Part shown: positions 1,473 to 39,631 of the stretch, in pieces
Layout: the number at the start of each line of letters is the position of its first letter
Numbering within the stretch: the stretch's first letter is position 1
Virus record (IMG/VR): IMGVR_UViG_3300020045_005713
Coordinates: 1-39,631 of that record
Reading direction: 5' to 3' (one strand)
From: a virus
Taxonomy: Duplodnaviria; Caudoviricetes
Length of the DNA: 39,631 nucleotides
Translations under genes and position numbers: made by a program
Notes under the pieces: model-generated
The model's input: the letters and a program-made list of their open reading frames with translations, nothing else
The model's database searches: none
Told to the model about the DNA's origin: nothing

Positions 1473-1630
1473 AAAAGAAAAAGCGCGCGCTGCGTTCGCG
1501 GTTGGCATCCTACAGCTACGAGCATCGCGCGTTGAGCGGCCAGGGGCGTCTCGACATTATTTTGCGAGAAGCATTTGTCCGAGCGGGGCGGTTCGATCTT
1601 GCGGCGGCGGCGCGTGATGCGCGGGGATAA
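1469..1630 (+). CDS. small basic hypothetical protein
   Basis: MKKKKRALRSRL...ARDARG, translated by hand; ATGA coupling to the upstream ORF. Confidence 0.4.
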   Translation: MKKKKRALRSRLASYSYEHRALSGQGRLDIILREAFVRAGRFDLAAAARDARG

Positions 1631-1638
1631 CATCTTGA

Positions 1639-1866
1639 ATGAAAAAGAAAAAGCGAGACGGGCGTGGCGGGAAGCGGGCGGGGGCTGGCAGGCCGAAAAT
1701 CGCGCCGGTATTACGTCGTATTACGACGGGCTACCGGCTCACCCCGGCGCTGGCTGCGTTCGTGGAGGATGTCGCGCGGGTCGAGGGAATCTCGCAGGGG
1801 CAGGCTCTTGAGAAACTTTTGAGCGAAAATATTCGTCCTATAAAGCTAGGAGTCGTATTCAGTTAG
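1639..1866 (+). CDS. small DNA-binding protein (possible ribbon-helix-helix)
   Basis: RGGKRAGAGRP motif followed by a strand-helix-helix pattern (TTGYRLTPALAAFVEDVARVEGISQGQALEKLL). Confidence 0.6.
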   Translation: MKKKKRDGRGGKRAGAGRPKIAPVLRRITTGYRLTPALAAFVEDVARVEGISQGQALEKLLSENIRPIKLGVVFS

Positions 1867-1896
1867 AAGATTCTCGTATTTTCTTTTGAATTATGT

Positions 1897-1924
1897 TTGC
1901 ATTAATCAAAAACCGTTGTATTCT
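1897..1924 (+). promoter_or_regulatory. putative sigma70-type promoter for the early cassette array
   Basis: TTGCAT (1897-1902), 16 bp spacer, TATTCT (1919-1924) in an AT-rich intergenic island. Confidence 0.5.
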
Positions 1925-1969
1925 TTATTCATCAACCGGCCAGAAGCCGGGGGAAAAAGGAGAACGCAG

Positions 1970-2161
1970 ATGAAAACTTACGCAGAGCCAAAAACAATCG
2001 TGTGCAACGCGCCTGAGGGCCGGATCACCGTTGCAACTGTCGCGCGGATCGTGACGGGCGGCAATCCCGGAACGGGCCTTCGCCGCTCGTACCGCGTGGA
2101 CGCTTCAGGGCGGGCGTTCTGGCGCAGCGCGTCAGGCAGTTGGGTTACCGCCCCCATCTAA
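1970..2161 (+). CDS. small early hypothetical protein (cassette 1)
   Basis: AGGAG RBS then ATG 1970 (MKTYAEPK...). Confidence 0.65.
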   Translation: MKTYAEPKTIVCNAPEGRITVATVARIVTGGNPGTGLRRSYRVDASGRAFWRSASGSWVTAPI

Positions 2162-2245
2162 TCGCCCCACCCCCCACCCGCCCCGATTCGTTCGGGGCTT
2201 TCCCGTTACCAGACGGCCAGAAGCCGACTGAGGAGGAAAACCAAG

Positions 2246-2587
2246 ATGAACATGGGATACTGCAAGTTTGAGAACACGTTGGCGGATTTTGAGGAGTGCG
2301 AAAGCGCGCTCCGAAACAACGAATCGCTTTCGCAAAACGAGCGCGAGGCGGCAAAGCAAATGCTGCTAGTAGCCGCTAGTCTGGCTCTGGACTTTGGGCT
2401 GCTATCTCTCAAGCGAGACGCCATTGATATGGCCGCGATTGAGGCCGCGCTACCACGCAAAGACCTGTTCGCTCGCGAGCTGTCCGACAACGAACTTGCC
2501 GGACTAGACGAGATACACGCTGACGAGGAACGTGAGAAACTGGAAGCAGAAATCAAGTCCCGCGAAAATGAGGAAGAATATCTATAG
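2246..2587 (+). CDS. acidic early hypothetical protein (cassette 2)
   Basis: GAGGAGG RBS; begins NMGYCKFENTLADF. Confidence 0.75.
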   Translation: MNMGYCKFENTLADFEECESALRNNESLSQNEREAAKQMLLVAASLALDFGLLSLKRDAIDMAAIEAALPRKDLFARELSDNELAGLDEIHADEEREKLEAEIKSRENEEEYL

Positions 2588-2679
2588 CCCGCCCTTCCAT
2601 CATTCCCGCCCCGCCCGGTGTCGATCACACCGGGCTTACTGCATTGAACGGGCCGGAAGCCCGATAGGAGAAAACGAAA

Positions 2680-2847
2680 ATGCAGGTCAGCAAAAAAAGT
2701 TTCCGCAAATTCATCGAGCATTGCGCCGCGTACCGCCGCGAAGAGGAAAAGCGTGGCGTAAAGTTCGGCTTGATTTATGCGATCAAGCCAACGCAAAACG
2801 AGGCCGATTACCAGGGCAAGCCGGTCAAGGTCACGATTCCTGAATAG
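2680..2847 (+). CDS. small early hypothetical protein (cassette 3)
   Basis: AGGAG RBS, ATG 2680, MQVSKKSFRKF...KVTIPE, TAG at 2845-2847; translated by hand. Confidence 0.65.
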   Translation: MQVSKKSFRKFIEHCAAYRREEEKRGVKFGLIYAIKPTQNEADYQGKPVKVTIPE

Positions 2848-2951
2848 CCGCCGTGCCACGCCGTTCTCCGTGTGGAGCACGGCTTCTGCCGCTGGCCGGG
2901 GGCGGGGCGATCCCCGGCAAAAATTCGCGCCGGAAGCGCAAAGGAGAAAAG

Positions 2952-3176
2952 ATGAAACTTTACGCCGTGTTCGTGAAGCGCGACGCCGACGAGTATTTGC
3001 AGTTGCTCGATTCCCGCCTGTTTCCGAAATTCGACGACGCCGTGGCGCACATGCGCGAGAACATTTTCCCGCACGCGATCTTCCATGTCGGGACGTGCGG
3101 CGACCTCTTCATGTCGGAGACCACCACGTTCAGATACGAAGACGTTTACAACGAACAAAACAACGTTCCTTTTTAG
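2952..3176 (+). CDS. small early hypothetical protein (cassette 4)
   Basis: AAGGAG RBS, ATG 2952 (MKLYAVFVKR...). Confidence 0.65.
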   Translation: MKLYAVFVKRDADEYLQLLDSRLFPKFDDAVAHMRENIFPHAIFHVGTCGDLFMSETTTFRYEDVYNEQNNVPF

Positions 3177-3185
3177 GAGATTGCA

Positions 3186-3512
3186 ATGCCGAAGCAGAAA
3201 GAGAGTGACTGCGAGCGGGAGGCGTGGCTCTATATCGCGAGGCGGTGGGACCGCGCGCGGCGTTGTTCGTGCGATCCACACTGTACGTCTTTTATTGCGC
3301 ATATTGAGTCATTCGCATGTGAAGGAATTTGTGTTTGTATTGATCTGATGCCTGACGTGGACAAAGACGTGCGTGAGCGTATGGCGCAGAAAATATACGC
3401 GGTTCAACACGGGAGCCTGTTTCTCTACCCGCGCACTCTTGCGGGCGCGAAGAAACGCGCGGCGTTCTGCCGGAAACAGGCGAAACTTTTGACGAAAGGT
3501 AAGCGGAAATGA
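3186..3512 (+). CDS. hypothetical Cys-containing phage protein
   Basis: AGGAG RBS; ATGA overlap with the erf-like gene. Confidence 0.6.
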   Translation: MPKQKESDCEREAWLYIARRWDRARRCSCDPHCTSFIAHIESFACEGICVCIDLMPDVDKDVRERMAQKIYAVQHGSLFLYPRTLAGAKKRAAFCRKQAKLLTKGKRK

Positions 3513-4291
3513 AGAAACCAAACGATGACGGGGGAGAAGTCGCGGGCGCTGGCGGGGGCGGATCGCAGATAATCCCCGCCAGCGCGGGGCAACTCGCGAA
3601 GCCTGAACCGCGGACGGGCGATCTAATCGCGATGGTCTTATCGAAGGCGATCACCCCTGACGCCGTTGGAGTGATTGAAAGGCTGGTTGCCTTGAAGCGC
3701 GACGAGGAAGACAGGAACGCCAAGCGGGAATTTGCGCAGGCGTTCAACGCGCTTCAATCCGAAATCCCGGTTATTAAGGCCGAGCGGGTCGTGCCGAACA
3801 AGGACGGCTCTACGCGCTACCTCTACGCGCCTTACGAGGACATCATGCGGCAAGCCACGCCGATTCTGAGGCGGCACGGTTTCTCGCTGGCGTTCTCCAC
3901 GAAGGTCGAGGGCGCGCGCGTGACGGCTATCTGCACACTGCTCCACGCGGGCGGGCACGAACGCACGAACGAGTACGCGGTACGCATCGGCGGCGGGCCA
4001 CCGGGCGCAACGGAGTGCCAAGCGGACGGAGCAGCATACACCTACGCCCAGCGTGGCGCTTTGTGCGATTGCCTTGGAATCACGGTGAGCGGGCGCGACA
4101 ATGACGCGCGGGAAATCGGCGCGCCGATAACGCCAGACCAAGCCGAGCACTTGAAGCAGCGCGTCGCGGAAACGAAGAGCGACGCCACGAAGTTCCTGAG
4201 CGTTGCCGGTGCAACGTCATTCGAGACGATCCCAACGAGCAAATACGCGCTACTGGACGCGATGCTGAAAAAGAAAGAAGGTCTGGCATGA
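3509..4291 (+). CDS. erf: ERF-family single-strand annealing protein
   Basis: F..A...LQSEIP.I, Y.YA.YEDI, L.H..GH and GAAYTYAQR..L (ERF GS..TYA.RY motif); adjacent to a YqaJ exonuclease. Confidence 0.88.
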   Translation: MKKPNDDGGEVAGAGGGGSQIIPASAGQLAKPEPRTGDLIAMVLSKAITPDAVGVIERLVALKRDEEDRNAKREFAQAFNALQSEIPVIKAERVVPNKDGSTRYLYAPYEDIMRQATPILRRHGFSLAFSTKVEGARVTAICTLLHAGGHERTNEYAVRIGGGPPGATECQADGAAYTYAQRGALCDCLGITVSGRDNDAREIGAPITPDQAEHLKQRVAETKSDATKFLSVAGATSFETIPTSKYALLDAMLKKKEGLA

Positions 4292-4953
4292 AAATCCACA
4301 ACGTTGCGCAGCACTCGGTTGAATGGTTCAAGCTTCGTGCTGGCGTTGTCACCGCTTCGGAACTTCACAGGCTGATAACACCGCTTTGGAAAATCCGAAC
4401 AGGCGACGGGCCGCAAACGTATCTCTGCGAAAAACTGGCGGAGTGGAAACTGCAAGGGCCGCTGCCGGACTTCGGGCGCTCATTCGGTGCGCTTGAACAG
4501 GGTACAATCTTGGAAGAAGAGGCGATTCCGTTCTACGAGTTCACCACGGGAGAGACGATCAGCCGGGTTGGATTCATTACCACGGACGACGGGCGATTCG
4601 GCTGCTCACCGGACGGGCTGATACAAGTTCCAACGACAATCTCGAATCCAGGCATCGCAGTGCAGGACGGCTGGACGCGCACGGCGGGGATCGAAATCAA
4701 ATGCCCGCAACCGCACACGCATGTAGGCTACCTACTTGACGGCGTTGTGCCGCCGGAGTACCTTGCGCAAATTCACGGGAGTATGTACGTCACCGGATTT
4801 CAGCGGTGGAAGTTCATGAGTTTCAGCCGGAGTTTCGAGCCGCTGATTCTGACCGTGGAGCGCGACGAAAAGATTCTGCCGGTGATAAAACTGGCGTTGG
4901 AAATCTTCGCTGAAAAGTTTGAGTCTGGTAAAAAGAAGTTGGGCGGTGCATAA
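4288..4953 (+). CDS. YqaJ / lambda-exonuclease family nuclease
   Basis: Q.S.EW..LR.G.VTAS, G..LE..A, GCSPDGL, IEIKCP and Y.AQI motifs. Confidence 0.93.
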   Translation: MKIHNVAQHSVEWFKLRAGVVTASELHRLITPLWKIRTGDGPQTYLCEKLAEWKLQGPLPDFGRSFGALEQGTILEEEAIPFYEFTTGETISRVGFITTDDGRFGCSPDGLIQVPTTISNPGIAVQDGWTRTAGIEIKCPQPHTHVGYLLDGVVPPEYLAQIHGSMYVTGFQRWKFMSFSRSFEPLILTVERDEKILPVIKLALEIFAEKFESGKKKLGGA

Positions 4954-5881: not shown

Positions 5882-6067
5882 TTGGAGCCGAAGCCGAAAG
5901 GCTTGGGAAGTGACTAACCGGGCAGGTGCGGACTACGAATGGCCGAACGACTCAAAGGCATGGCGACACGCATCGGAACAAGGCGCATGGTCATATTCGC
6001 AGTTGAGCACTGCGAAACATCGACGCCCCGGCTTCAAACAATACGTAGCCTTAACCATTTGGTTAAG
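5882..6067 (+). ncRNA. putative structured non-coding RNA
   Basis: outer stem TTGGAGCCG 5882-5890 / CGGCTTCAA 6029-6037; AAGCC-GAAA-GGCTT; TTCGCAGT-TGAGC-ACTGCGAA; following hairpin CTTAACC-ATTT-GGTTAAG; 250 bp gap in otherwise tightly packed genes. Confidence 0.5.
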
Positions 6068-13065: not shown

Positions 13066-13317
13066 TTGTTTGAACAAGGGGCTGTTCTAATGCTTGAACC
13101 GATTGCCTACTCGCTCGGAACCGTAGCGGATTACGAAGTGGAAATCCGCAAGGACAGCGATATATGGACGGCGCTGTTTTACAGTCGCGAGTTGACCGAC
13201 GAGGAAGGCAAGCCGAAGGAGTTTCTGATTGCCGAATGCGCCACGCTGGATGACGCGCGGGCGGCGGCGGGAAGGTGGATGAGTGCCAACGAAAGCGAAA
13301 CAGCACCGGGCGCGTGA
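13066..13317 (+). CDS. hypothetical protein
   Basis: 83 aa ORF filling the gap; start may be 13090. Confidence 0.45.
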   Translation: MFEQGAVLMLEPIAYSLGTVADYEVEIRKDSDIWTALFYSRELTDEEGKPKEFLIAECATLDDARAAAGRWMSANESETAPGA

Positions 13318-13555
13318 GGGTGACCCGGTGCGGAAATTCCGTTCAAGCACGCGGTGGAAAAAGTTCAGGGCGTGGTATCTTTCCGGCGATCCGCTGTGCG
13401 CCGACCCGTTCGGCAAGCACGATGCGGACGGGATTGTTGTCGCGGCTCAGGAGTTGCATCATAAGATACCGTTGTGCGAACGGCTGGACTTGGGGCTTGT
13501 GGAGAGTAACGTGCAACCGTTATGCAGTGAATGCCACTGGAGGAGTGAGCGATGA
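13283..13555 (+). CDS. packaging-associated HNH endonuclease (HK97 gp74-like)
   Basis: W.K.R..YL...PLC, ELHHKIPL, NVQPLC..CH. Confidence 0.85.
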   Translation: MPTKAKQHRAREGDPVRKFRSSTRWKKFRAWYLSGDPLCADPFGKHDADGIVVAAQELHHKIPLCERLDLGLVESNVQPLCSECHWRSER

Positions 13556-13851
13556 TAACTGAATACAAACGGAACGAAATTATACGCGCTGTCGAGTTGT
13601 TGCGCAAGTTGCATATTCTCGCCGAGGCCATTGAGACTACGCGCGTAACATTGCCACTCGTTACGCCTGAGATACTCGATGCAGTCGGTTGCGCAAACAA
13701 GCAACGCCTTGGCGAGTTGGTTATTGAGAAGGCGACGCGCGAGGTTAAATACTCTGTCACGGACTCGCGACTGGTTCTTCTCCGGCACACTCTCACGGTG
13801 TTGGATTGCAAGCGGCTAAGTGCCGTGTTGGAAGGAAAGGATGCAAAATGA
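13552..13851 (+). CDS. hypothetical protein
   Basis: GGAGGAG RBS; ATGA-coupled. Confidence 0.55.
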   Translation: MITEYKRNEIIRAVELLRKLHILAEAIETTRVTLPLVTPEILDAVGCANKQRLGELVIEKATREVKYSVTDSRLVLLRHTLTVLDCKRLSAVLEGKDAK

Positions 13852-14066
13852 AGGTGTATAGGCTTGTGGCAGACGGCACAGGCGTCCATCCGAGGATTGC
13901 GGCGTGGTCGCGATACTCGCCACTGTACGCGACGCGCGCATTAGCCACGGCCAAGCGCGCTGCGTTTCGTGCGCGCGTCATTAACATGGATGATTACCCG
14001 GTATGTTTCCGGGATGATAAGACCTTGAAGATTACAATCGAATCCATGGAGGTACTAACGCGATGA
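13848..14066 (+). CDS. hypothetical protein
   Basis: ATG 13848, ATGA-coupled at both ends. Confidence 0.5.
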   Translation: MKVYRLVADGTGVHPRIAAWSRYSPLYATRALATAKRAAFRARVINMDDYPVCFRDDKTLKITIESMEVLTR

Positions 14067-14251
14067 AATACCACCGACTTCATAAATACGACGCGGTGAC
14101 GTATTATGAATTGAAGTGCAGCGAATGCCGCAAGGTTGTTTCCGGTGTGATAGAATTCTGTGAAGATGATAGTTACGACACGCTTTATATTTGCGCCGAG
14201 TGTTTGGAGAAGGCGCTGGCGGAATGCAAAAGGGCACAAAGTGAATCTTAG
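14063..14251 (+). CDS. small zinc-finger protein
   Basis: CSEC...ICAECLEKAL; resembles 11149-11361. Confidence 0.6.
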   Translation: MKYHRLHKYDAVTYYELKCSECRKVVSGVIEFCEDDSYDTLYICAECLEKALAECKRAQSES

Positions 14252-15863
14252 CGAGACGATCAAACTAATCCCCGGCTACAATCCACACGACCAAGCGGGC
14301 GATTGCGTCTTCGATGAAAAGGCCGCGCAACACGCGCTGGACTTTTTCACGGAGTGCTTGACGCATATCGAAGGCGCGAAAGCTGGCACGCCGTTCCTGC
14401 TTGAACCGTGGCAAGTGGCAATCGTTGCGAATCTGTTTGGCTGGAAGAAACCGGACGGCACGCGGCGCTATCGGACTGCGTTTATTTACGTTCCTCGCAA
14501 AAGTGGTAAATCGCCCCTCGCGGCTGGCCTATGCCTCTACGCTCTCATGTGCGATAAAGAGCGCGGCGCTCAAATCTACAGCGCGGCGGCTGACAAAGAG
14601 CAAGCGGCAATCGTGTACCGGCACGCGCGCGGGATGGCTGAGGCGTCGAGTACGATTTCCAAGCGCGTGAAGATTTTCAAGTCGATAGGCCAGCGGGCAA
14701 TCGTGTTGAAGTCAGACCCGGCAAGCGCATACGTGGTCATATCGGCAGACGCGAAAACGAAACACGGCGGAAATTCCCACTTCGTTGTAATCGACGAACT
14801 CCACGCGCAACCAGACCGCGAGCTGGTGGACGTGCTTGATACGTCAATGGCAAGCGCAAACCGTAAGCAGCCGATGATGATTTACATTACCACGGCGGAT
14901 TACGACCGCGAAAGCATTTGCAACGAGAAGTATTTTCGCGCGTGCAACGTTCGCGACAACGGCGGAAACAAATTGAAGCCGGGATATGACCCGTCGTTCT
15001 TGCCGGTTATCTATGAGACCGCGAAAGACTCCGATTGGACAAACCCGGACGTTTGGGCCGCGTGCAATCCGAACTTAGGAATCTCTGTTTCGCGCGAGTA
15101 CCTTGAACAGGCGTGCAAGGAAGCTCAGGAAATCCCCGGCAAGCAAAACGCTTTCAAAAGATTGCACCTAAACCTGCGCACGCAGTCCGATATTCTCTGG
15201 CTTCCGATTGACGCATGGGATGAATGCGCGGGGAAGGTATCGAAGAAAAAGCTGCTTCAAACTCCTTGCCACGGCGGGCTTGATATGGCAACGACCACGG
15301 ACATAGCGGCATTCGTCCTGGTATTCCCTGAAAAAGACACGTGGAAAGTTCTTTCAATGTTTTGGATTCCCGAAGAGTCCATGCACGCGCGCGTGAGGCG
15401 CGACCGAGTACCGTATGACGAATGGGTGAAAGCCGGATACATCAAGACCACGCCGGGGAACGTTGTCGATTACGACCGGGTGAAGAAAGATATTTTGAAG
15501 GCACATGAAGACTATTGTATTATCGACATTGCCGTTGACCCGTGGAACTCCACGCAACTGCAAACGCAACTTGCAAGCGAAGGCTTGGAGATAATCAAAT
15601 ATCCGCAAGGCTTTTCCATGTTCACGGCACCCGCGAAAGAACTTGAAAAGCGGATTCTGTCGCGTACACTATCGCACGCCGGGAATCCGGTGTTGCGTTG
15701 GATGGCGCAAAATGTCTGCATTCTGGACGACGGCGAAGGAAACATAAGGCCGGACAAAAAGAAGTCACGCGAGAAAATCGACGGCATAGTTGCGTTGCTC
15801 ATGGCAATGGGGCGCGCGCTGGTGAGTGACGGCGAAGGCGATTACGAGATAGAAAAACGATGA
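14241..15863 (+). CDS. terL: terminase large subunit (Terminase_1 / HK97-like cos type)
   Basis: LEPWQ, Walker A PRKSGKS, Walker B VVIDELH, ITTA, GGLDMA, KIDGIVA; probable GTG start at 14241. Confidence 0.96.
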   Translation: MNLSETIKLIPGYNPHDQAGDCVFDEKAAQHALDFFTECLTHIEGAKAGTPFLLEPWQVAIVANLFGWKKPDGTRRYRTAFIYVPRKSGKSPLAAGLCLYALMCDKERGAQIYSAAADKEQAAIVYRHARGMAEASSTISKRVKIFKSIGQRAIVLKSDPASAYVVISADAKTKHGGNSHFVVIDELHAQPDRELVDVLDTSMASANRKQPMMIYITTADYDRESICNEKYFRACNVRDNGGNKLKPGYDPSFLPVIYETAKDSDWTNPDVWAACNPNLGISVSREYLEQACKEAQEIPGKQNAFKRLHLNLRTQSDILWLPIDAWDECAGKVSKKKLLQTPCHGGLDMATTTDIAAFVLVFPEKDTWKVLSMFWIPEESMHARVRRDRVPYDEWVKAGYIKTTPGNVVDYDRVKKDILKAHEDYCIIDIAVDPWNSTQLQTQLASEGLEIIKYPQGFSMFTAPAKELEKRILSRTLSHAGNPVLRWMAQNVCILDDGEGNIRPDKKKSREKIDGIVALLMAMGRALVSDGEGDYEIEKR

Positions 15864-29759: not shown

Positions 29760-29812
29760 ATTCGACGTTTGGAGTTTACAGTTGCTTTTTGCTGGCGATT
29801 CGGTTAGATAAC

Positions 29813-29866
29813 ATTCGGCTAGGGTAGCTCCTGAAAAGCGTGGAATTCCCGCCACGCCTGCCGAAT
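29813..29866 (+). ncRNA. putative C4-like antisense RNA
   Basis: ATTCGGC/GCCGAAT outer stem, two inner hairpins, GGCTAGGGTAGCTCC.GAAAAG sequence; loop TTCCC complementary to GGGAA at 29880 and 29895; TTGCTT-17-TAGATA just upstream. Confidence 0.6.
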
Positions 29867-29921
29867 TTGAGATTGCAACGGGAAGCACGGCTATGGGAAG
29901 GCCGCTTCACGTTAGAAGCGC

Positions 29922-38547: not shown

Positions 38548-39631
38548 TTAGCTCTTCGCCAAAATCTTCGTTTCATCGAACCCGGCAATCTCGCAATGAG
38601 CTTGCGCGCAGGTTGCAACGTGGTGCGGCACCGGCATGTAATACGTGCGTTTCGTGCTGCCGTCTGTCCCGACGAGCCACTTATTTCCAGATTTATCCGC
38701 CAGCAATGCGCGCGGCGCGGCACCTTTGCGCGCGCGTTCGTTGTCCACGTCAACGACCTTAGCGCCAGACTCTAAAAGATACTTCCCCGCGCCCATCCGT
38801 TCAATCATTATTCGCCGGACTTCCGCATTCGGCTCGGCATCGACCTGAGCGACCGTGAGTGTTTCGGGTTGTTCCACAATTTGTCGCGTGAGTAATACCC
38901 CACGGATAAAATATAAATCCGCGACATCGCATATCACGGCTGGGCCTGTGTCGCAGTGCGGCTGGCGCTGTGAATCCACCAGGACGGTCGGTTTTGCCAC
39001 CCAATATAACACGTCGGGAGTCCAATACAGCAGCCACGCACCGGAGAGATACGCATCGTATACGTGTTGGCTCCAGCGCGTAACGCTGGCTATACTCAGT
39101 TGCACTGCTCCGATGTATGTACAGGCGAGCCATGAGACATCCAAGTACCATCGCCAGGACGACCGCAGAATACACCACAGAGCAAACCGTTGAAGAGCAG
39201 CGTCACTCGCGTCACGCGCGTCACGCGCGGAAATCGCGTCACTCGCGTCACTCGCGGCACGCGCGGCACGCGCGGCAATCGCGGCACTCGCGTCACTCGC
39301 GTCACTCGCGGCACGCGCGGCAATCGCGTCACTCGCGTCACTCGCGTCACTCGCGGCACGCGCGGCACGCGCGGCAATCGCGGCACTCGCGGCACTCGCG
39401 TCACTCGCGGCACGCGCGGCACGCGCGGAAATCGCGTCACTCGCGTCACTCGCGTCACTCGCGTCACTCGCGGCACGCGCGGCAATCGCGTCACTCGCGT
39501 CACTCGCGGCACGCGCGGCAATCGCGGCACTCGCGTCACTCGCGGCAATCGCGGCAATCGCGGCACGCGCGTCACGCGCGTCACGCGCGGAAATCGCGTC
39601 ACTCGCGTCACTCGCGGCACGCGCGGCACGC
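38548..39631 (-). CDS. DUF6745-like protein with Ala-x-x repeat region, 5' end beyond the window
   Basis: H...GPAV, Y..RGV, NAEVRRIMIERMG..YL, Y..PVP; the frame stays open upstream of 39144 (DAALQRFALWCILRSSWRWY) and through the repeat. Confidence 0.75.
   Translation of the reverse strand, partial: RAARAASDASDAISARDARDARAAIAAIAASDASAAIAARAASDASDAIAARAASDASDASDASDAISARAARAASDASAASAAIAARAARAASDASDASDAIAARAASDASDASAAIAARAARAASDASDAISARDARDASDAALQRFALWCILRSSWRWYLDVSWLACTYIGAVQLSIASVTRWSQHVYDAYLSGAWLLYWTPDVLYWVAKPTVLVDSQRQPHCDTGPAVICDVADLYFIRGVLLTRQIVEQPETLTVAQVDAEPNAEVRRIMIERMGAGKYLLESGAKVVDVDNERARKGAAPRALLADKSGNKWLVGTDGSTKRTYYMPVPHHVATCAQAHCEIAGFDETKILAKS
39202..39631 (-). repeat. coding 9-bp tandem repeat array (about 48 units, six variants)
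   Basis: minus-strand units GCG-(AGT/CGT/ATT)-(GAC/GCC/TCC) encoding ASD, ARD, ARA, AIA, ASA, AIS. Confidence 0.95.

Follow-up and report, generated by a model that had tools for sequence, protein, structure and literature searches.

How does a phage express a row of small, unrelated genes that share one candidate promoter, and what is the role of the hairpin repeated in front of each of them? The locus that raises these questions lies in a 39.6-kb tailed-phage contig, and the window analysed here is the entire record (39,631 bases). Host-takeover and counter-defence functions cluster among the small, first-expressed genes of phages, and the burst expression of such genes is poorly mapped outside model phages. 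An initial reading of the letters alone (hereafter the sequence-only reading) had described four small-gene cassettes separated by a structured spacer, and had suggested either RNA-level control, for example through boxB-like sites, or a platform for cassette exchange. The hairpin array is confirmed as real, non-random and uncatalogued; that it comes from one genome, in four copies and with an inferred mechanism, limits the value of the finding. Our preferred explanation, held tentatively and with somewhat less than even confidence, is that each gene would be framed by a leader hairpin on its 5' side and by a 3' hairpin that blocks exonucleases or terminates leakily, the linker between the two being cut.

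Genome setting and layout of the locus

The + strand carries all of the following: small terminase (750), ERF-like annealing protein (3509) and YqaJ exonuclease (4288), a replication initiator, RusA, two methylases, large terminase, portal, capsid and tail genes with a tape measure. Integrase, repressor and antiterminator families gave no match in 72 ORF queries to PHROGs and were absent from the NCBIfam results of the 17 window ORFs queried, these scans covering part of the short ORFs rather than every one. A host search returned weak ERF matches in 2 of 401 and 1 of 401 genomes, from two phyla. Three features of the wider contig may be mentioned in passing. About 13 kb, containing the entire early and replication block, separates the small terminase gene (750-1190) from those for HNH and the large terminase (13283-15863). 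An int-alpA RNA (RF02996) is found at 29812-29881 on the + strand (37.1 bits, above the gathering threshold), among the tail genes and upstream of the one for the tail terminator, with no integrase beside it. At the contig end, positions 39200-39631 hold a long run of a 9-nt tandem unit with an open minus-strand frame, possibly a collagen-like coding repeat or an assembly break.

The array is preceded by the 80-nt window with the highest AT content in the genome (27.5% GC) and followed by the recombination genes; because of this layout, with an AT-rich promoter window before and recombination genes after, its genes are probably first-expressed. Just upstream, a 75-aa product shows Atlas feature matches of 0.92-0.95, an RHH_1 cluster among them, and has no Pfam, PHROG or NCBIfam match. 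Its gene and the adjacent small gene at 1469-1630 both start with MKKKK(K)R, and the DNA around the two starts is near-identical, which suggests a duplicated start region. Gaps between genes measure 84-104 nt within the array versus 9, -4 and -4 nt after gene 4, where a coupled run of gene 5, the ERF-like annealing protein and the YqaJ exonuclease begins 9 nt further on. The features are listed below.

1639-1866, + strand: 75-aa gene upstream of the array; basic N-terminus, ribbon-helix-helix-like, candidate promoter regulator
1897-1924, + strand: putative sigma70-like promoter TTGCAT-16-TATTCT; 8/12 consensus matches, below the threshold of the promoter scan and uncalled
1936-1950, + strand: leader hairpin copy 1, CCGGC-CAGAA-GCCGG (5 bp, loop CAGAA); AGGAG at 1958, ATG at 1970
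1970-2161, + strand: gene 1, 63 aa, basic; SD AGGAG at 1958; no family
2162-2200, + strand: spacer 1, C-rich tract (18 nt) and 7-bp post-stop hairpin 2180-2198, TTT tail
2214-2226, + strand: leader hairpin copy 2, CGGC-CAGAA-GCCG (4 bp, loop CAGAA); AGGAG at 2231, ATG at 2246
2246-2587, + strand: gene 2, 113 aa, acidic; N-terminal half matches phrog_8760 (E 9e-12), function unassigned
2588-2637, + strand: spacer 2, C-rich tract (25 nt) and 9-bp post-stop hairpin 2613-2635, TT tail
2649-2663, + strand: leader hairpin copy 3, CGGGC-CGGAA-GCCCG (5 bp, loop CGGAA); AGGAG at 2666, ATG at 2680
2680-2847, + strand: gene 3, 55 aa; no family
2850-2885, + strand: post-stop hairpin of spacer 3 (2860-2883 or 2850-2883), TT tail; predicted fold
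2895-2918, + strand: additional GC-rich hairpin, in spacer 3 alone; predicted fold
2927-2939, + strand: leader hairpin copy 4, GCGC-CGGAA-GCGC (4 bp, loop CGGAA); AGGAG at 2942, ATG at 2952
2952-3176, + strand: gene 4, 74 aa; no family

The leader hairpins and what might read them

The sequence-only reading was right that a hairpin with the loop C(A/G)GAA precedes the AGGAG of every gene in the row, at a distance of 2-7 nt in all four copies. They are the only C(A/G)GAA hairpins with a stem of at least 4 pairs on the + strand of the 39,631 bases, whereas shuffled sequences gave a mean of 0.62 and a maximum of 3 genome-wide (100 shuffles) and a mean of 0.025 and a maximum of 2 within the region (2000 shuffles), for a motif that had been picked after being seen. 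A covariance model of the four copies detected no fifth in the window (next match E 0.61). Rfam models, including riboswitches, ribozymes, CRISPR repeats, Yfr1 and RsmY, gave nothing at gathering threshold in the array, the closest match being Yfr1 with 19.5 bits against a threshold of 38 (E 0.5). A narrow literature search yielded no description of the element, which does not establish that it is unpublished. Two candidate features were discarded: a terminator-like call on the minus strand (2942-2924), which is leader hairpin copy 4 in reverse, and a CRISPR-repeat-like CATTGAA after the hairpin, confined to spacer 2 and without Rfam support. The targets of CsrA/RsmA carry GGA in an ANGGA loop; here GGA is absent from two of the four loops and misplaced in the others.

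The covariation claimed for the stems is present. Two of five pairs are changed on both sides and 18 of 20 cells pair, a score reached in 17 of 500 shuffles; with four copies this signal is real but thin. The two-sided changes point to a single-stranded form. The earlier formula, that structure rather than sequence is conserved, holds for the outer stem but not for the 9-base core GCCRGAAGC (GCC-R-GAAGC), which is invariant: 8 of 15 hairpin positions do not vary, versus 0 of 12 upstream positions. When all pentaloops were compared on the same stem, 69% were predicted to be more stable than C(A/G)GAA, and together with the invariant core this indicates that folding energy is not what keeps the loop constant. 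The element can thus be described as 13-15 nt with a fixed loop and a swappable stem.

These observations bear on the plainest explanation, in which the spacers would be relics of a duplicated leader combined with ordinary weak terminators, with no common function left. The array does not recur among the loci searched, and the small-gene region of phage YuA also has a post-stop C-rich tract plus hairpin, as relics would predict. Against it, the core is invariant while the flanks have fully diverged, and pairing has been maintained through two-sided changes; we give this explanation hardly any credence.

The palindromes could also act as double-stranded DNA, as operators of the upstream RHH-like protein, one placed over the transcription start and the others serving as roadblocks. 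Copy 1 lies ~5 nt from the predicted transcription start and would cover about +5 to +20, a position that suits this reading for copy 1 only; the RHH-like gene adjoins the promoter; and GCCRGAAGC occurs six times in the genome, four of them inside the array, with inverted part-copies at the GGCTT ends. However, changes on both sides of the outer stem are what a hairpin, and not an operator, would be expected to show, three of the four sites have no adjacent promoter, and all four share one orientation and a fixed distance to the SD. Operators are in our view quite unlikely.

At the RNA level, the leader hairpin is predicted to form with a probability of 0.95-1.0 in three copies and of 0.03 for copy 4 in long context; in isolated spacers, it is predicted in spacer 3 and absent in spacer 2. 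The hairpins do not seem to act as insulators of the ribosome site: predicted SD accessibility is 0.71/0.49/0.52/0.48 versus 0.75/0.43/0.54/0.49 with shuffled letters, so that there is no gain over shuffles in three of four copies.

A boxB-like relay would explain the fixed loop best. A phage protein would bind the C(A/G)GAA hairpins and, by antitermination over a short range, promote read-through of the next post-stop hairpin, or would switch on translation of the gene behind. In the available parts of the boxB literature (PMC2724277, PMC12550061, PMC9074901, PMC3177189, PMC3526286), the lambda and P22 nut sites likewise contain a 15-nt hairpin with a purine-rich pentaloop (PMC2724277 for lambda), which occupies a promoter-proximal place in an early operon with terminators further on. 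In the array, every weak terminator has a leader copy one gene upstream; CTT ends 15-17 nt ahead of the loop in three of four copies (background 3.5%, a spacing picked after the fact); TATTCTTTA, 8 nt ahead of copy 1, matches rrn boxA at 7/9 positions; and GNRA-like folds are possible from other sequences (PMC12550061, in part).

The differences are of several kinds. The boxB pentaloop family is GNRNA (PMC9830547, in the part available), with G first and A last, whereas the loops here are CAGAA and CGGAA and begin with C. A single-stranded boxA 8-9 nt upstream is approached in copy 1 only, where the boxA-like 9-mer overlaps the predicted -10 box; in the remaining three copies the boxA-like words match at 3-6 positions (5/9, 6/8 and 4/8) and lie inside a stem. 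Among the ORFs scanned (72 PHROGs and 17 NCBIfam queries), no antiterminator family and no N-family arginine-rich-motif protein was found, such proteins being known to diverge fast, and no stretch of 15 residues in the nearby small proteins contains more than 5 R. The post-stop tails, moreover, are those of weak terminators. Finally, lambda nut sites lie near promoters and not ahead of each ribosome site, whereas here a copy precedes every SD.

The boxB comparison stands for the 15-nt hairpin and the sequence-kept loop, and fails for the loop type (not GNRNA) and for boxA (poor in three of four copies); an N-like partner gave no match among the ORFs scanned. A relay of this general kind seems to us doubtful, though worth keeping in view; its most specific version, in which an unrecognised small phage RNA-binding protein would work along the first operon, using a new loop code and a single site for every gene, without boxA, to license the read-through or translation of one gene after another, is unlikely. 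If a protein does read the loop, the array would represent a new RNA-protein pair of the boxB/N kind; if there is no loop reader, it would be one further independent design among stop-hairpin-RBS spacers.

In its placement the element recalls SAS/ESAS of cluster K mycobacteriophages, likewise a conserved inverted-repeat element directly before small-gene starts, whose function was left open with a host or phage factor suspected (PMC3203893, in the portion available). According to the same portion, the SD lies within SAS, a fixed 13-mer, and ESAS consists of a 17-bp inverted repeat whose spacer varies, both being found at many genes and in many genomes (PMC3203893), whereas the present element has a 4-5-bp stem and a fixed loop, in four copies and one genome. 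The consensus GGGATAGGAGCCC with 17-bp inverted repeats is not present in the array, the sole resembling word being GATAGGAG in spacer 2.

Spacers and a possible processing scheme

The three internal spacers each contain the longer hairpin running into GGC-TT that had been reported earlier (2180-2198, 2613-2635, and 2860-2883 or 2850-2883). These post-stop hairpins begin 18, 25 and 12 nt past the stop in spacers 1, 2 and 3, and end in GGC followed by TT. The C-rich tract described with them is clear in spacers 1 and 2 (15 C/2 G and 12 C/1 G per 20 nt) but weak in spacer 3 (10 C/5 G). At 12-25 nt, the tracts do not correspond to the site of a Rho-dependent terminator, 70-80 nt long, unstructured and C-rich in the available part of PMC3526286. 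The predicted probability of hairpin formation is 1.0 in spacers 1 and 2; the tails, with 3-4 T in 8, hold fewer T than a strong terminator would need and were not called by the terminator scan. Folding is better than that of shuffles in spacers 0-2 (z -2.15 to -2.64) and not in spacer 3 (z -0.54). The longest exact stretch common to two spacers is 13 nt, other pairs sharing 6-9, and likeness exceeds that of shuffles in five of six pairs (p<=0.006).

In the framing explanation that we prefer, the repeated spacer would convert a single early transcript into one message per gene, each protected and translated on its own. Host RNA polymerase would start at the promoter at 1897-1924, with copy 1 capping the primary 5' end. 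The post-stop hairpins would act both as leaky terminators and as blocks to 3' exonucleases, output falling along the row. Where RNA reads through, an RNase E-type endonuclease of the host would cut the unpaired linker between the two hairpins, and the downstream piece would then start like the primary transcript, its 5' end lying within a few bases of a leader hairpin. The conserved loop would probably be read by a host or phage RNA-binding factor favouring the cut, stability or ribosome loading, and the four leader copies probably descend from one leader by duplication. From the sequence, the positions, the covariation and the predicted folds we infer promoter use, termination, cutting, protection and the loop reader.

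Several features are consistent with this scheme. The first unit consists of the 5' half alone and the internal spacers of both halves, and coupling is tight after gene 4; framing is the simplest reading of this anatomy. In RNA pieces beginning in the linker, the leader hairpin is predicted to fold at the 5' end in all three cases, and 5'-terminal hairpins stabilise bacterial mRNA. The early genes of T7 are also separated by structured spacers that cut the early transcript into single-gene messages, at RNase III sites with long stems, whereas the stems here measure 7-9 bp in two of three spacers, so that a nuclease other than RNase III would be needed. RNWUU, the RNase E core in Salmonella (PMC5222698, in part), occurs in all three linkers versus 16% of random 15-nt windows, although the motif was chosen post hoc and one site overlaps a stem base; the motif is that of Salmonella and may not apply to the host of this phage.

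End protection alone needs no fixed loop, and a reader must therefore be assumed. Also against framing are the single genome, the absence of the array from the 428 loci compared, the lack of gain in SD accessibility and the unpredicted copy 4 in long context, as well as spacer 3, which folds no better than shuffles, and the promoter, which is below the scan threshold. As for the general proposal of RNA-level control, it is supported by the two-sided stem changes and by the fixed place before each ribosome site.

The two hairpins of a spacer could also be alternatives to each other. The GGCTT foot of the post-stop hairpin is complementary to the AAGC(C) of the leader hairpin, and in a two-state RNA switch, occupation of the 5' arm would free GGCUU to pair with AAGC and remove the leader hairpin; in spacer 3 the SD would be closed as well, and each gene would be coupled to translation of the preceding one. 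With the 5' arm blocked, the alternative helix has a predicted probability of ~0.23, 0.95 and 0.5 in spacers 1, 2 and 3. In the post-stop hairpin of spacer 3, TTCTCC (2864-2869) is the complement of the downstream SD, a nested anti-SD, and an inverted near-copy of the leader-hairpin unit lies at 2880-2891, its loop without the C. Unconstrained, however, the alternative helix carries an energy penalty of 7-10 kcal/mol in spacers 1 and 2, and closing the SD in spacer 3 one of 4.8 kcal/mol; SD accessibility is nearly equal between the states; in spacers 1 and 2 the stop lies 18-25 nt ahead of the hairpin; and an old inverted duplication accounts equally for the complementarity. A switch is very unlikely on these grounds. 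The GGCTT complementarity, the inverted copy and anti-SD of spacer 3, the CTT spacing and RNWUU were all picked post hoc and are to be taken as leads. A further hairpin, AAGCC-GAAA-GGCTT, at 5891-5904 on the + strand after a 302-aa gene, reuses the AAGCC/GGCTT words of the array, in an intergenic stretch that folds no better than shuffles (z -0.43).

The closest parallel in overall build is provided by the PeSLs (promoter-early stem-loops) of T4-type phages, which in the available parts of PMC2839356 and PMC4122927 are likewise a repeated module of stop, stem-loop, and SD and start, placed between small orphan genes of an early variable region, with a terminator- or attenuator-like stem-loop. 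In PeSLs a sigma70-like promoter is present in every copy, ~100 bp of sequence are shared, and swaps between relatives have been demonstrated (same parts of PMC2839356 and PMC4122927), whereas the window has one promoter candidate, at most 13 shared bases and a second hairpin with a fixed loop. No PeSL-type promoter in every copy was found, the best internal scores being 8, 7 and 6 of 12, none of them called; the score of 8 (2133) lies inside gene 1 and is without TTG and the -10 A. The array is PeSL-like in build without internal promoters, SAS/ESAS-like in placement and boxB-like in shape, and by the features tested is a member of none of these.

Recurrence, cargo and gene exchange

Recurrence in related phages had been set beforehand as a check on the array, and it was not found: apart from the window, the array is absent from all 428 loci compared (1.81 Mb). 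One of these loci has two C(A/G)GAA hairpins with SD-like words, the second apparently in coding sequence, and one, from Lysobacter, has three units with a common loop of different sequence. Pattern scans of IMG/VR retrieved 119 loci (14/64 parts), 11 loci and 116 loci (55/64 parts), all of them single sites without an array; two hairpins per locus were seen in 3 of 119 and 1 of 116 (L383, 33 nt apart), none being the array. The covariance model likewise recovered single sites: it matched 10 of 22 records at E<=1, the top six being the very sites by which those records had been selected, and 1 of 8 ERF-relative records (E 0.55). Blastn of 1600-4300 against 50,697 phage records gave no match.

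Relatives were sought through the ERF-like protein (1 and 9 loci at 27-51%) and the small terminase (3 + 3 distant loci). In the ERF relatives at 43-51% the layout differs and the motif is missing, the hairpin pattern is absent from 5/5 ERF-relative records, and one relative, L120, has a temperate layout with a repressor and without the array. Closer relatives are known as proteins, including ten ERF at 65-70%, and the window's own 90% clusters contain another small terminase and RHH-like protein; the search thus reached the DNA of distant relatives, closer ones being compared as proteins alone. The one sequencing run that was found gave no reads over the array. Separately, a 6-bp CGGAA-loop hairpin with an SD is common to the prophage-like records L344 (2495-2535) and L383 (near 2545-2500 on the minus strand), in each as a single site ahead of unrelated genes.

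As for the cargo, searches of Pfam, PHROG, NCBIfam and phage proteins gave neither a family nor a noteworthy phage match for genes 1, 3 and 4, and PADLOC returned 0 matches for 7/7 proteins. Gene 2 belongs, by its N-terminal half, to phrog_8760, the family of Pseudomonas phage YuA gp47, which is within its 65 weak phage matches; it has 179 clusters at E<=1e-3, and its profile gave no match below E 0.18 among solved structures. A 224-codon antisense ORF (2880-2206) was dismissed as a shadow frame, serine-rich opposite the acidic gene 2, such frames being common here. In the small-gene region of YuA the order is likewise stop, C-rich tract, hairpin and SD.

The cassette-exchange platform proposed from the sequence supposes that the spacers act, or once acted, as joints for recombination, with single genes being gained, lost or swapped there, as with PeSLs, the ERF-like and YqaJ proteins perhaps helping. 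The row is modular, with four unrelated genes, and the spacers resemble each other beyond shuffles in the five pairs noted above. The gene 2 family occurs in many unrelated contexts without the spacer, which indicates that gene 2 was brought in, and in Lysobacter loci the same family is found in other repeated-leader arrays with changed gene order. In the opposite direction, exact sharing of 13 nt at most and 6-9 nt otherwise falls short of the ~100 bp conserved in PeSLs (PMC2839356, in part), no internal promoter consensus has TTG, the ORFs scanned contain no integrase match, and no relative combining the spacer with different cargo is among the 428 loci. Nor does the spacer accompany the gene 2 cargo: 166 loci (759 kb), 157 of them with the gene 2 family, contain 20 C(A/G)GAA hairpins, and none of the 20 precedes the family gene. 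The platform hence lacks direct support, and we judge recombination joints improbable. Integron attC sites have the consensus ends RYYYAAC...GTTRRRY; such ends were not seen by eye, and no integrase was found in the ORFs scanned.

Evidence for cassette shuffling is stronger in the Lysobacter loci than in the window. Small-gene arrays are found in L263, L269 (e.g. 1640-3920), L270, L276, L289, L292 and L295, where every gene lies behind a repeated two-hairpin leader and a ribosome site (2-5 copies per locus) and is followed by a conserved 3' hairpin. The leaders have no Rfam match and differ from that of the window, and the cargo includes paralogues of the YuA-gp47 family. Gene order varies between these loci, an 84-aa gene being second of three in L263 and last in L276, L289 and L295.
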